A DNA stretch of 64,000 nucleotides from Escherichia phage 4MG, in the sequence record NC_022968.1; one strand, 5' to 3'. The first letter of the stretch is position 1, and the number at the start of each line of letters is the position of its first letter. Position numbers and translations under genes: made by a program. This document shows, piece after piece, positions 52,482-56,001 of the stretch. The notes beneath the pieces were generated by a model that did no database searches, was not told the origin of the DNA, and saw nothing but the letters and a program-made list of their open reading frames with translations.

Positions 52482-52491
52482 CACACAACAA

Positions 52492-52519
52492 GGGAGCCTG
52501 AAGAGGCTCCTTTTCTTTT
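52492..52519 (+). terminator. intrinsic terminator (GGAGCC-loop-GGCTCC + TTTTCTTTT)
   Basis: Hairpin and T-run right after stop at 52481. Confidence 0.55.
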
Positions 52520-52603
52520 ATCTAAAGTGGCACATCAATTTCCCTTGACCTGAAGTGTCCCGTCGATTATACTCCATCTATCAATTACACGAGGAGAAAT
52601 TTT

Positions 52604-52717
52604 ATGACTGGACTTGAATTTTTAGTGCTAAGTGCGTGGGTGTGCTTCATGCTGTTCGGAAGCATTGGCCTGCTTCTGTGGGTATCTGTTGGTCCAGTGG
52701 CTAAGAAGGACGAATGA
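52604..52717 (+). CDS. tiny membrane peptide (37 aa)
   Basis: Not in track; GAGGAGAAATTTT SD; hydrophobic. Confidence 0.3.
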   Translation: MTGLEFLVLSAWVCFMLFGSIGLLLWVSVGPVAKKDE

Positions 52718-52893
52718 TGGAACTGATTATCTTGTGGGGACTGCTGATCCTCTGTGTTGTCCTGATAGTGCTTGCTATCTGCGCCATCTTCAGCGATGAC
52801 GATGACGACACGCCTTCCTCCGGCTCAGGCACTGTTGATACCGCTATGCTGATCACCACACAACAGGCTATGGTTGTCACCATGATTTTATAA
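52714..52893 (+). CDS. small membrane protein with acidic tail (59 aa)
   Basis: Not in track; coupled start; hydrophobic N-terminus then DDDDD. Confidence 0.3.
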   Translation: MMELIILWGLLILCVVLIVLAICAIFSDDDDDTPSSGSGTVDTAMLITTQQAMVVTMIL

Positions 52894-52905
52894 GGAGAAC
52901 ACAAC

Positions 52906-53133
52906 ATGTTTATATTCAGCAAAGAAGTGGTCAACACCCTTCTGAAAGAGGCCCACCAGGAATTAACAAGGGTTGAGGATGCCCTGCTTGCACTTCACGA
53001 CAGGGGGTACGGAATGTGCTCTGAAGAGTTCGTTTCCCTGATGGAGTATCGCAGACTGACAAAGAATTCCATTGAAGATCTGGAGAAGAAGTTCAAAAGA
53101 CTTGGGCTGATTGAGGAGATCCTGAAGAAATGA
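52906..53133 (+). CDS. hypothetical protein (75 aa)
   Basis: Track ORF; AAGGAGAACACAAC SD. Confidence 0.45.
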   Translation: MFIFSKEVVNTLLKEAHQELTRVEDALLALHDRGYGMCSEEFVSLMEYRRLTKNSIEDLEKKFKRLGLIEEILKK

Positions 53134-53369
53134 AAGAGCACGAGTTCAAAATACGTTTCGACAAAGCCACAGGTGAGTGGCGTGTATGGGTGAAGGTTCC
53201 GTTCCTGTTCTTCTGGACCTGCTGGCAGGTTGTTTTCAAAACCCAGAATGGCATATACGGAAATCCGTTCTTTGATAGCGAAAGAGACTGCGAGAAAGGC
53301 ATCGAGAAGTGGAAGCTGGAAAACGCACCGGACTATGAGCGTTACAACACAACCCACCGCAAACTCTAA
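53130..53369 (+). CDS. hypothetical protein (79 aa)
   Basis: Track ORF; coupled start. Confidence 0.45.
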   Translation: MKEHEFKIRFDKATGEWRVWVKVPFLFFWTCWQVVFKTQNGIYGNPFFDSERDCEKGIEKWKLENAPDYERYNTTHRKL

Positions 53370-53378
53370 GGAGAACAC

Positions 53379-53666
53379 ATGGCTTTCCACAAGGTTGTAA
53401 AAGCGCCTGCGAAACGGGCGCATATAAAGAATTACCCACACAAGAAGTCTGAAGCGAGAGACCGAAGAGTGAAGTGGTTATGGGACTATACAAAATCACT
53501 TCTTGGGGTTATCCTCGTAAACAGCGGCTATCATAAGTTTCACTTCTACGAACAATGGAGTGCTGTGAAAAAAGAGCTTAAAGAACTCGATGCTTACGAT
53601 GAGCGAAACACCTGGCTCATTATCTCAGATGTTAAGTGGGAGCACAACAGATTTTATCGGTGGTGA
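53379..53666 (+). CDS. hypothetical basic protein (95 aa)
   Basis: Track ORF; AAGGAGAACAC SD; last gene of rightward block. Confidence 0.45.
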   Translation: MAFHKVVKAPAKRAHIKNYPHKKSEARDRRVKWLWDYTKSLLGVILVNSGYHKFHFYEQWSAVKKELKELDAYDERNTWLIISDVKWEHNRFYRW

Positions 53667-53679
53667 CCACACAAAAGGG

Positions 53680-53708
53680 TTGACGTAAACTGTCAGCCCT
53701 GTTATAGT
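53680..53708 (+). promoter_or_regulatory. sigma70-like promoter TTGACG-N17-TATAGT firing into the ORF-free island
   Basis: Hexamers read directly 14 nt after last + gene; no ORF with SD follows; coordinates +/-2. Confidence 0.45.
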
Positions 53709-54433
53709 CATTATACGCCACATCTCCTGAAGCGGGAGGATACAATCACCAGACCTGCGTGAAAGGTTGTACACCCTGTTAACATTCTGTCATGTCGATA
53801 AAACACCATTTCATAAACATATACCCCACAACATGTCGATGCTATAAACATGTCTGAAGTGACCCAGCAAATTAGCCGGGGACTAATCGCCTTGCGATAT
53901 ACCCACCCCTCCCCCGCCCGGAGGGAAACGTAAACAGGCCCCTCTCTTTGTGTTTTCTGGCACGAAAATATCCTGAAGAGGCAGGGCCTCGAAGACAGGT
54001 GTTTCTGGGCGCAATCTCTATGTCTGATGTGTTAGACGGACAATCACAGCCCCTCCGGGTTGTCAAGGATCTTTACAAAATATCTGAGAGGTCTGACCAC
54101 GAGACCCTATCGAGTTTTTGGCACGATGATTGCATGATGATTACGTGGCGCAACTAATGATTACAAGTGCAACTATTAGCAATGTGACAGTTTACACCTG
54201 TTACAGCACGATTTGCTCTTGACTTGCTTATATTTGTGTGAATGAGCCTATTTAACATAATACACGTTATGCGAACCACAGATCACCGGGAGACAGGCCA
54301 TATAGTCACATATGTTATCATTGCATCAGTGAACCATACCACAAGGCAACCAATAGCCTGCTACATGTTACCACCACGACAGTTTCACGCTGTTATTATT
54401 CATTTTGTGGGGTGTTTTGTCGATGAGAATACA

Positions 54434-54446
54434 AATGATAATCATT
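54434..54446. promoter_or_regulatory. Fur-box-like palindromic 13-mer AATGATAATCATT
   Basis: Identical to the central 13 nt of the E. coli Fur consensus GATAATGATAATCATTATC; second identical copy at 54584-54596. Confidence 0.4.
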
Positions 54447-54583
54447 CTGAATACGATTTCGATTTCAGTTTCGAAATGAAAACCATTCTCAAATGGAAAA
54501 TATTTTGTAAATCTGCCATAAAAAGCTTGACACAGAGGGAAAAATGTGTTTAGCATTTAAGCCTATCTTGAGCATCCAACCGC

Positions 54584-54596
54584 AATGATAATCATT
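54584..54596. promoter_or_regulatory. Fur-box-like palindromic 13-mer AATGATAATCATT (second copy)
   Basis: Exact repeat of 54434-54446, 150 bp away. Confidence 0.4.
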
Positions 54597-54782
54597 AACG
54601 TTAAGCCTTGCTACGCCTGGCTTTAATAGACTTTTCCTATCAATAAAAAGCTTGACAGTTTACACCTTTTCATGCTCAAGAAAACCGCTTTTCATCGGGC
54701 ATCTAGCCCGGTTTACAACATGATTAATCATGATTTGTCAATCATTAAACATGATTAAACCGCTTTTGATCTTCATAACCTG

Positions 54783-54802
54783 GCGACACAATAACACGAG
54801 GG
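54783..54802. repeat. left arm of perfect 20-bp inverted repeat GCGACACAATAACACGAGGG
   Basis: Exact reverse complement of 54976-54995; arms 173 bp apart with nested 11-bp inverted repeat. Confidence 0.7.
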
Positions 54803-54975
54803 CGATCATGCGATAGCGTGATCGGTGTTATCGTGGCGAGGTTATAAAATACTTCAACTATGCAATAGTTGCATTATGAATTATTCATTGTTCTAGTCAT
54901 CTTGTCTGTTAACGCTTAGGCGCTAACGAGCCACGATAACGCGAACGAAAACGATATTTATTATCGTTTGAGTTA

Positions 54976-54995
54976 CCCTCGTGTTATTGTGTCGC
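54976..54995. repeat. right arm of perfect 20-bp inverted repeat CCCTCGTGTTATTGTGTCGC
   Basis: Exact reverse complement of 54783-54802. Confidence 0.7.
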
Positions 54996-55131
54996 TCGCT
55001 CCGCTCGCGCCACTCACCCCGATAACGCGAACGATATTTTTATTTGACAAAAGATGATTACTATGCTCAAAAAAGACAGTTCACACAAAGGGTTAGATGA
55101 GAAAAGTTATCATTTCAGGGCTTTTGCTTCG

Positions 55132-55327
55132 TATTCACTCAATTTGCATAAAAACACGGTGTTTATTCACTTGATAACCTGCGTTATCATTTTTGGGGTG
55201 TGAGTGAGTCAAAGGCGGGTAATGATACACGATTAAACGCAATATAACGCGTTTTGAGAGGGTTTATCTGTTAGGCTTGCCGTTGTATGGCTTCAAAGAG
55301 ATCTCTTTAAATTCACTTTTTTGCATA
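55132..55327 (-). promoter_or_regulatory. regulatory cassette C: two conserved boxes (ATTCACT-N-TTGCATA type) about 179 bp apart, with AAAGAGATCTCTTT palindrome
   Basis: Boxes at about 55132-55150 and 55311-55327; paralogous to cassettes at 56538-56732 and 61218-61414. Confidence 0.5.
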
Positions 55328-55376
55328 AAGACGGGTAAAGATTTAGTGTTTTGTTTGGGGTGTTGGTATGATATGC

Positions 55377-55400
55377 AAAAAGCCGGGGATTATCCCGGCC
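55377..55400 (-). terminator. intrinsic terminator of leftward block (GCCGGGGA-UUA-UCCCGGC + UUUUU on minus strand)
   Basis: Hairpin and U-run immediately downstream of last minus gene (stop at 55420). Confidence 0.6.
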
Positions 55401-55419
55401 TTACTTGGTGTGACTTTGA

Positions 55420-55635
55420 TCAGATAAACATTGCAGCATAATGATCGTAAAGGTCTTGCGCTTGTCTGGCAGGCCAGCGGCTTTCATCCACCGGGACACG
55501 TAGATCAATCGGGCGGCGATCTTTCAATCCGTTAACATGAAAAAATGTTTCACCTGTAAGCTGTACGATCTCCAGTTTAACGAGGTTGTCAGAATCTTTT
55601 ACGGTCTGCTGAATGAGAATAGTAGTCATTTGCAA
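55420..55635 (-). CDS. hypothetical protein (71 aa)
   Basis: Track ORF; coupled to upstream gene. Confidence 0.45.
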   Translation of the reverse strand: MQMTTILIQQTVKDSDNLVKLEIVQLTGETFFHVNGLKDRRPIDLRVPVDESRWPARQAQDLYDHYAAMFI

Positions 55636-56001
55636 TTACTCCACAATTGTGATGGTTTGACCTGGTAACAGGAAATTCCCGGTTTTATCGTCAAAAATTC
55701 CGGTTGCACTTGTTACGGTGACCGTTTCGCCTGATGTCACGATCATAACTTGGGATTCAGTTGGATAATCAAAGGTGTAAAGGCGAGGTGTTAACGGCTT
55801 GCCGCTTTCTTTCGAATAGTTAACATCATAATCATAAACGGCTTGACATTTGATCGCTACCGTTTCGGCCTTGTAATAGTGGTTATCATAGCCATAGCCA
55901 CGCATAAACGGCGCGGATATTTCCAGGACTTCACACAGCGAACCACGAAACAACATATCGCCTTTTTTCAGGTCTAAAAGGTTGATTTTCTTAAGATCCA
56001 T
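55636..56001 (-). CDS. hypothetical protein (121 aa)
   Basis: Track ORF; GAGAGG SD after stem-loop. Confidence 0.45.
   Translation of the reverse strand: MDLKKINLLDLKKGDMLFRGSLCEVLEISAPFMRGYGYDNHYYKAETVAIKCQAVYDYDVNYSKESGKPLTPRLYTFDYPTESQVMIVTSGETVTVTSATGIFDDKTGNFLLPGQTITIVE

Follow-up and report, generated by a model that had tools for sequence, protein, structure and literature searches.

In the 64,000-nucleotide stretch of Escherichia phage 4MG analyzed here (NC_022968.1; hereafter the window), a promoter that we call P53680 was found just inside the left boundary of a non-coding gap of 1.75 kb (53667-55419) lying between two convergent gene blocks. We are highly confident that this conserved gap holds the genome ends and that P53680 belongs to the junction between unique sequence and the terminal repeat. 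The segment downstream of the promoter is an untranslated leader that runs into the terminal-repeat cut site, and not a gene for a folded RNA. The feature is an undescribed member of two known kinds, a cassette-type early promoter joined to a T7-type terminal-repeat junction. The best overall explanation that we can offer combines this anatomy with transcription across the cut site, and as a combined account it falls a little short of being probable.

The window comes from a Seunavirus-like myovirus of the Vequintavirinae. The gap is bounded on the left by the last gene of the + strand (53379-53666) and on the right by a block of - strand genes that ends at 55420, with a clear third-codon-position bias over 55420-55635 in a codon-phase comparison. 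The 2 kb around P53680 matched approximately 37-61 phage records, all from the Vequintavirinae, which fell into Seunavirus (GAP31, PVP-SE1), Mydovirus (KB57, KPP-1) and, with weaker matches, the Erwinia Henunaviruses. Conservation of the promoter and the leader was judged on about 20 distinct Seunavirus and Mydovirus relatives. The principal features are as follows.

53680-53708, + strand: sigma-70 promoter P53680, from a promoter scan and conservation in about 20 relatives
53724-53738, + strand: 5' leader hairpin CTCC[TGAAGCG]GGAG, covering roughly +10 to +24 of the predicted transcript
53739-53790, + strand: leader block ACAATCACC..CCTGCGTGAAAGGTTGTACA..TTAACA, conserved in sequence but showing no conserved pairing
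53791-53865, + strand: repeated CATGTCGAT / (A/G)TAAACAT units, from alignment and a repeat search
53902-53925, + strand: C-rich tract CCCACCCCTCCCCCGCCC, a rut-like stretch with more C than G
53957-53973, + strand: CTGGCACGAAAATATCC motif, from its repeat family and alignment
54024-54049, + strand: imperfect inverted repeat CTGATGTGTT / AATCACAG (54024-54033 with 54042-54049), from covariation in 20 sequences
54035-54550, no strand: predicted direct terminal repeat of 516 bp, from homology to the ends of Hena1, KPP-1 and KP12
54061-54085, + strand: left end module, with TGTCAAG at 54061-54067 and TTTACAAAATAT(C) at 54072-54085, invariant in 20 sequences

Edges of the predicted terminal repeat

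Three independent sources place the ends of related genomes in identical alignment columns, at invariant motifs. The record of the Erwinia phage Hena1 annotates a 'direct terminal repeat 1' at 1-519, and the KP12 record begins with GACGGACA... and ends with ...GTGCTA. For KPP-1, a repeat of 514 bp (116316-116829) was determined by doubled coverage and PhageTerm, and its packaging was described as T7-like (PMC9862379). Because the edges of all three fall on the same columns, the repeat of this phage is predicted from the alignment to span 54035-54550. Its left edge, GTGYTA^GACGGACA (^ marks the cut), corresponds to 54034^54035 in the window (GTGTTA^GACGGACA), and its right edge, GTGTT^TAGCA, to 54550^54551 (ATGTGTT^TAGCA). 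Short terminal repeats and T7-type packaging are established for the Vequintavirinae (PMC9862379, PMC7471380), and the reported repeats of Hena1 (519 bp), KPP-1 (514 bp) and Gotham (459 bp) share both edge columns with the 516 bp predicted here. Unlike the present account, those reports give coordinates only, and no description of a nick motif, mirrored end modules, a cut-site hairpin or an upstream promoter was found in the literature searched.

The two edges (54024-54085 and 54497-54556) were found to mirror each other on opposite strands. The left end module has inverted copies at 54526-54532 and 54500-54511, whose spacing from the right edge corresponds to that at the left. When each strand is read 5' to 3', the order of motifs is the same, namely the nick motif TGYTA^RAC (TGTTA^GAC on the top strand and TGCTA^AAC on the bottom strand), TGTCAAG, and then TTTACAAAATAT at 37-39 nt from the nick. 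In the established model of T7-type ends, one strand is nicked at one edge and the other strand at the other, and extension of the 3' ends then duplicates the repeat. The mirrored layout is what would be expected if a single enzyme made both nicks in this way, and it suggests a single site-specific nicking activity working on opposite strands. The best-conserved blocks of the segment downstream of P53680 (54029-54085), which recur inverted at the other repeat edge, are DNA-level end signals.

The left cut site itself lies in the invariant loop A^GACGGAC of the imperfect inverted repeat at 54024-54049. Across the 20 sequences, 93% of the cells in its eight-pair helix were paired, versus 33-59% when the partners were slid, and three of the pairs change on both sides. 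Since several of the pairs are G-U, the hairpin is specific to the + strand. A hairpin around the right repeat edge was also considered; it occurs in the window, GAP31 and KPP-1 but is inconsistent across phages, and it is not claimed here.

Conservation of the promoter P53680

P53680 consists of a -35 element TTGACG (53680-53685), a 17-nt spacer and a -10 element TATAGT (53703-53708) with an extended -10 TG at 53700-53701, and it matches 10 of the 12 consensus positions of the sigma-70 hexamers. The -35 element begins at the 14th base past the stop codon of the + strand gene 53379-53666, and transcription is predicted to start near 53715. An initial annotation of this DNA had reported a TTGACG-N17-TATAGT promoter 14 nt past the last + strand gene; the promoter is present as described and was conserved in all of the Seunavirus and Mydovirus relatives examined. 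As a bare pattern such sites are within chance, with 14 promoter-like sites in 5 kb versus 10.6 +/- 3.2 in shuffled sequence. The extended pattern TTGAC-N15-TGnTATnnT has its sole exact match in the 64 kb at P53680.

The promoter has been kept in these approximately 20 relatives despite differing upstream genes. Among them, TTGAC, the 17-nt spacing, the TG and positions T1, A2 and T6 of the -10 element are constant, while two spacer variants and four -10 variants (TATAGT, TATGCT, TATTCT, TACTAT) occur. In BIS47 and GEC_vB_MG, a 47-nt insertion separates the old -35 element from the -10 element; the TG and the -10 element are retained, and a new TTG-hexamer stands 17 nt upstream of the -10 element, so that a usable promoter is preserved. 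Because the sigma-70 positions are constant while the spacer and the -10 element vary, P53680 is, to judge from this comparison, a genuine sigma-70 promoter under selection.

P53680 faces sequence that has no coding signature, and therefore any product would be a non-coding RNA. The open reading frames (ORFs) of the gap include one of 27 aa (53850-53933) and one of 69 aa (53948-54157; 45 aa from the ATG at 54020). In the codon-phase test, differences from four relatives were counted per codon position, and the flanking genes served as positive controls. The controls gave counts of 17/17/69, 18/9/53 and 11/12/59 over the three positions, and for all gap ORFs of at least 25 aa the differences were spread evenly (for example, 34/37/33 for 54020-54157). 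The small-protein reading of the 27-aa and 45/69-aa ORFs was ruled out by this test, as was the coding reading of the homologous small coding sequences (CDSs) annotated in GAP31, EspYZU08/14 and AV124. The absence of any downstream ORF preceded by a Shine-Dalgarno sequence, which had also been noted at the outset, was confirmed.

It was noted that the GenBank records of relatives place small CDSs over the non-coding region and across the terminal-repeat cut site. Those annotated over the region are as follows.

L003, 2784-2942: small CDS in a relative's GenBank record
L002, 3365-3523: the same
L004, 2544-3492: the same
L006, 2599-3098: the same
L029: annotation in a relative's GenBank record

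In EspYZU08, a 52-aa CDS labelled 'ligase' straddles the genome end, and hypothetical CDSs do likewise in GAP31 and KE22. In K18PH07C1, a pseudogene annotated as 'tail spike protein' overlies the match to the promoter block. The rV5 genome map shows a 'non-coding' box (PMC3606486), and the homologous 2.2 kb carries no annotation in the PVP-SE1 record. No literature describing the content of this region was found, and the transcriptomics of PAK_P3 and PAK_P4 offered nothing transferable to it.

Origin of the promoter in a terminator-promoter cassette

P53680 has a paralogue, P52545, at 52545 (TTGACCTGAAGTGTC...TATACT, that is, TTGACC-N17-TATACT), and the two promoters have TTGAC(C/G)T(G/A)AA(G/C)TGTC in common. 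P52545 is preceded by a canonical terminator at 52493-52520, GGGAGCC[TGAAGA]GGCTCC followed by a T-run, and the pair forms the following unit.

52485-52573: terminator-promoter composite, paralogous to P53680

Only two promoter copies occur in the 64 kb, and P53680 is without the terminator half in the window. In Ro1, EspYZU08, EspYZU14 and PVP-SE1, a P52545-type terminator and the upstream element directly precede the gap promoter. Because of this arrangement, the five small window genes at 52604-53666 look like a cassette inserted between the promoter copies. As part of the anatomy, P53680 very probably stands as the terminal copy of such a cassette.

A comparable arrangement is seen in the PeSL (promoter-early stem-loop) cassettes of T4-type phages, in which a strong sigma-70-like promoter is joined to a terminator stem-loop and repeated among small ORFan genes, and in which indels between relatives are bounded by repeats (PMC2839356, PMC4122927). 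Unlike those cassettes, the promoter described here is limited to two copies in 64 kb, its P53680 copy is missing the terminator half, and P53680 heads a conserved gene-less leader rather than an ORFan. The PeSL cassettes are therefore regarded as an analogue and not a homologue.

It was also observed that 13 hairpins in the window, both strands counted, have a loop opening with TGA(A/G)G on a stem of 4 bp or more, versus 4.8 +/- 2.0 in shuffled sequence. Among them are the 5' hairpin of the leader (53724-53738) and the terminator stem-loop at 52493-52510. The CTGAAG motif is present in three copies on the + strand between P53680 and the cut site, with none on the - strand of the gap.

The untranslated leader

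Near its predicted start, the leader has a mean identity of 0.85 over 53720-53769. Among 16 distinct sequences, all four pairs of the 5' hairpin are intact (0/64 cells broken), two pairs switch together from CG to GC (8 sequences versus 8), and the loop ranges from 7 to 9 nt. The conserved block that follows at 53739-53790 contains the DNA palindromes TGTACA and GTTAAC. The repeated units at 53791-53865 mark the site where variable small hairpin modules have been inserted between phages, and one of the CTGAAG copies is located there at 53854.

Over 53741-53975, the leader is rich in C, with a C/G ratio of 1.3-2.6. Within the C-rich tract, CCCTCC (53907-53912) pairs with GGAGGG (53920-53925) in a GC hairpin (local fold z -2.78), and the relatives keep a CCCC/GGGG hairpin at this place. 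The AAAATATC sequence recurs at 54078-54085, with extra copies in Mydovirus. The C-tract, the GC hairpin and the AAAATATC repeats were found upstream of the cut in all relatives, including the promoterless KP12 and Hena1.

Distant homologues of the 5' hairpin were sought with a pattern scan of IMG/VR, which returned mostly the same isolates together with two metagenome contigs. In one metagenome scan, with the 3' arm left free, three of the 120 hits passed the flanking-motif filter and none of them had the promoter or leader context.

Proposed transcription through the cut site and alternative explanations

A promoter that is selected with no gene behind it implies that either the RNA or the act of transcription matters, and we favor the latter. 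We tentatively propose that transcription toward and through the cut site, rather than a folded RNA product, is what counts, although we would stop short of calling this mechanism likely. By the anatomy, of which we are highly confident, the host sigma-70 promoter P53680 is predicted to start an untranslated RNA near 53715, made up of the 5' hairpin followed by about 200 nt of C-rich, poorly structured and insertion-prone leader. The template then reaches the left cut site at 54034^54035, and the invariant blocks beyond it are end-formation signals at the DNA level. In the proposed mechanism, a rightward polymerase would use the - strand as its template and transiently free the + strand, which is the strand to be nicked at the left edge if the repeat is duplicated by 3'-end extension. 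The freed + strand could fold the covarying hairpin and present A^GACGGAC in its loop. Termination by Rho is expected because the leader is untranslated and C-rich, and Rho would probably end most transcripts around the repeat boundary, giving heterogeneous 3' ends. We infer each of the start site, the Rho termination, the nicked strand and the coupling of transcription to cutting.

A fuller version of this mechanism is speculative and, taken with all of its parts, unlikely. Here, transcription from P53680 would act in cis when genome ends are formed in both Seunavirus and Mydovirus, with host RNA polymerase taking the part of the phage enzyme in the T7 phiOR/concatemer-junction mechanism. The exposed + strand hairpin would offer A^GACGGAC to the nicking enzyme, the 5' hairpin would resist premature termination, and in Seunavirus a sigma-54 holoenzyme waiting 85 bp inside the repeat would add a second, activator-gated layer.

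Several observations weigh against a role of transcription in end formation. In Hena1, pEp_SNUABM_01 and KP12, the cut site is retained along with the C-tract and the AAAATATC repeats, yet both P53680 and the 5' hairpin are absent, and this argues against the promoter being universally required for end formation. The distance from the predicted start to the next invariant block at the cut is variable, ranging from 231 to 418 nt among relatives through modular indels. The covariation of the 5' hairpin comprises two stem haplotypes only and may reflect one event. C-rich RNA disfavors stable R-loops, and Rho might halt the polymerase ahead of the cut. No transcriptome of any relative was found in the literature. 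Finally, the cassette origin allows a simpler view, in which P53680 is merely the last cassette promoter.

This simpler view is the alternative that survives best, and we regard it as improbable. It holds that an orphan cassette promoter marks a landing or recombination site for gene cassettes, and that the RNA made from it does nothing by itself and is removed by Rho. The intrinsic terminator ahead of the paralogue P52545, the terminator and upstream element right before the gap promoter in the four relatives named above, and the precedent of the PeSL cassettes all speak for it, as do the rut-like character of the leader and the degenerate copies of the terminator loop CCTGAAGAGGC within it. 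It leaves unexplained why the first ~75 nt of the leader, with its covarying hairpin, are conserved (0.85) and gene-less in about 20 genomes, and why promoter function has survived a 47-nt insertion.

A short trans-acting RNA of about 60-150 nt is a more doubtful proposition. The 5' hairpin would protect such an RNA, its conserved and unpaired stretch CCUGCGUGAAAGGUUGUACA would pair with a host or phage target, and its 3' ends would be set by Rho or by processing. The strong conserved promoter and the covarying 5' hairpin are consistent with this, and so is the succession of the conserved block at 53739-53790 by a variable region. However, the leader has no intrinsic terminator or U-tail as in typical Hfq-dependent small RNAs, complementarities within the window reach only 11-12 nt, which is chance level, and the conserved block contains the two DNA palindromes. 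No Rfam match supports an RNA of this kind. At the gathering threshold, the whole window gave two tRNAs elsewhere and nothing relevant to the promoter region, and in a permissive search of 53600-55700 all E values were 0.25 or worse, with scores far under the gathering scores.

It is quite unlikely that there is no working promoter at all and that TTGAC..TGAC-N7-GTCA..TGnTA, together with the next inverted repeat, binds a phage protein (the small terminase subunit or a regulator) as part of the packaging signal. The -35 element and spacer of P53680 do hold the inverted repeat TGAC-N7-GTCA, and both spacer variants preserve it. Inverted copies of GTAAACTGTCA lie at 54185 and 54653, and CTGAAG is confined to one strand between the promoter and the cut. 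Against this reading, the constant positions are exactly those of sigma-70, while the rest of the spacer and the -10 element vary. The stem pairing of the 5' hairpin holds while its loop varies in length from 7 to 9 nt, and because of this a hairpin is favored over a dimer operator. The GTAAACTGTCA copies are not conserved across phages, and since relatives lack the copies that lie inside the repeat, the repeated GTAAACTGTCA / TGACAGTTTAC sequences were rejected as a conserved set of operators.

A folded RNA of about 400 nt (53715-54120), ended by the hairpin and T-run noted in the initial annotation, was largely refuted by the comparative analysis and is now very improbable.

Assessment of the proposed RNA structure

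The proposal of a folded RNA drew on a promoter that is real and on a single-sequence fold that, over the whole 406 nt, is only slightly better than shuffled sequence (z -1.69, a marginal value). Local hairpins at 53907-53925 and 53936-53989 also fold well. Folding with covariation across related phages had been suggested as a check, and it was carried out with RNAalifold on 20 leaders, each taken from its predicted start through to 90 nt beyond the invariant block that follows. The consensus fold was negligible, with 22 pairs and -11.7 kcal/mol over 909 alignment columns, and the pairs that survive form three short helices, namely the 4-bp 5' hairpin, the 4-bp GC hairpin and the 8-bp cut-site helix. 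With no terminator and no Rfam family either, a structured RNA of a few hundred nucleotides is not upheld, and an RNA of the proposed extent would span the terminal-repeat cut site.

The complementary segments that had been put forward are present in the sequence, but their pairings either do not exceed chance or lack conservation. CCGGAGGG (53918-53925) and CCCTCCGG (54051-54058) are in fact part of a 9-nt complement (53917-53925 with 54051-54059), and 29% of dinucleotide shuffles hold as many 8-mer pairs as were observed. The two segments do not pair with each other in the minimum-energy fold; there, CCCTCC at 53907-53912 is the local partner of GGAGGG. PVP-SE1 combines a window-type 5' arm with a different 3' arm. 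This long-range pairing was rejected as being at chance level, missing from the minimum-energy fold and broken in relatives. The second proposed pair, AGGCCC (53936-53941) with GGGCCT (53984-53989), does form a local hairpin (z -2.56), but its 3' half (~53976-54012) is deleted in most relatives.

The proposed 3' end of the RNA corresponds to the following element.

54090-54119, + strand: weak stem and T-run, with a 5-bp GGTCT/AGACC stem (54090-54106), 8 unpaired nucleotides and T5 at 54115-54119

This hairpin has a fold z of +0.37, its stem sequence is not conserved, and its T-run adjoins a sigma-54-type -24 element. A terminator scan of 53667-55636, including the leader, gave no terminator-like site. 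The terminator reading of 54090-54120 was rejected on these grounds, namely the z value, the 8 nt before the T-run and the silent scan.

Relation to known systems and significance

T7 RNA polymerase pauses at the concatemer junction, upon which maturation is initiated (PMC3276506), and T7 transcription was tied to maturation by Chung & Hinkle (1990), as cited in PMC13236587. As in the phiOR-pacB region of T7 and T3, the promoter described here faces into the terminal repeat from a few hundred bp upstream, with the predicted start near 53715 placed 320 nt to the left of the repeat edge on the same strand. The two systems also share an inverted repeat or hairpin near the cut and short exact terminal repeats that are duplicated during concatemer processing. 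Unlike the phage-polymerase promoter of T7 and T3, P53680 is of the host sigma-70 type, and there is no sequence homology between the systems. A further difference is that the promoter is missing in some Vequintavirinae that keep the cut site, and that coupling to packaging is here a proposal of the present analysis.

Two further phage systems invite comparison. The boxB of the lambda nut site and the put sites of HK022 likewise place a short conserved stem-loop in the first ~25 nt of an untranslated phage transcript. Unlike them, the leader of P53680 has no boxA, its loop UGAAGCG does not resemble a GNRA-like pentaloop, and it has no two-stem put architecture. The pRNA of phi29 is similarly a non-coding transcript from a promoter next to the genome terminus, but it has a conserved multi-helix fold, to which nothing here is comparable, and it belongs to protein-primed phages.

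Phages of the Vequintavirinae, among them PVP-SE1, GAP31 and the Klebsiella Mydoviruses, are common isolates in work on therapy and biocontrol. In their annotations, the 2-kb 'non-coding box' has either stayed empty or received spurious small CDSs that run across the genome end. Placing the repeat at 54035-54550 would allow precise orientation and annotation of these genomes, with recognizable edge motifs and a conserved outward-facing promoter as guides, and it would provide defined cis elements for engineering or transduction assays. If transcription from P53680 is indeed needed for end formation, a phage without its own RNA polymerase would be using a T7-style link between transcription and packaging.

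Other elements of the non-coding region

A second type of promoter sequence was found inside the repeat.

54118-54135, + strand: sigma-54-type promoter TTGGCACGATGATTGCAT (TGGCACG-ATGA-TTGCAT at 54119-54135), 85 bp inside the repeat

The sigma-54 consensus is YTGGCACGrNNNTTGCW, to which TTGGCACGATGATTGCAT is a full match, and TTGGCACGATGATTGCAT is also the sole exact TGGCAC-N5-TTGCA site in the 64 kb. The site is exact in all Seunavirus loci, where its N4 spacer varies (ATGA, AGTC, GATT), and it is absent from Mydovirus and Henunavirus. A tblastn search for a phage-encoded sigma-54 activator with the AAA+ domain of PspF gave no Vequintavirinae match and returned bacterial contigs only; a host activator is possible.

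The only strongly structured element of the region is a large branched palindrome at 54783-54995, built from a perfect outer stem of 20 bp, an inner stem of 13 bp and two hairpins. Its fold z values are -9.5 (DNA), -10.6 (RNA of the + strand) and -9.5 (RNA of the - strand), and its consensus fold in 15 phages has 53 pairs at -72.9 kcal/mol, with eight compensatory pairs and almost none broken. It has no Rfam match and might serve as an origin or as a priming signal, or else give rise to a structured RNA. Because the promoterless KP12 has homologous sequence (the match starts at 54784), the palindrome looks independent of P53680. The most conserved block of the gap, at 54920-55115, reaches up to 0.93 identity across two genera, and 29-nt direct repeats with CGATAACGCGAACGA occur at 54931 and 55017.

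A conserved promoter-like site on the - strand (54423-54395; T(T/C)NACA-N17/18-(TG)AATAAT) lies inside the repeat and faces the left cut and P53680; if active, it would bring about convergent transcription across the cut site. Two perfect palindromes AATGATAATCATT (54434-54446 and 54584-54596), one 116 bp within the repeat as measured from its right edge and the other 34 bp beyond that edge, match the core of a Fur-box consensus at 14-15 of 19 positions by eye and are only partly conserved in relatives. The block ATTTAACATAATACACGTTAT at 54248-54270 is nearly invariant in 19 sequences and has a conserved TTGAC before it, at a distance that misfits the standard sigma-70 spacing.

Genes for tRNA-Lys(CTT) and tRNA-Met(CAT) were observed on the - strand at 2032-2107 and 2802-2878, respectively. 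The right edge of the non-coding gap is formed by the intrinsic terminator of the - strand gene block (55375-55399, - strand), GCCGGG[..]CCCGGC followed by TTTTTGC, the counterpart of which is annotated in PVP-SE1.

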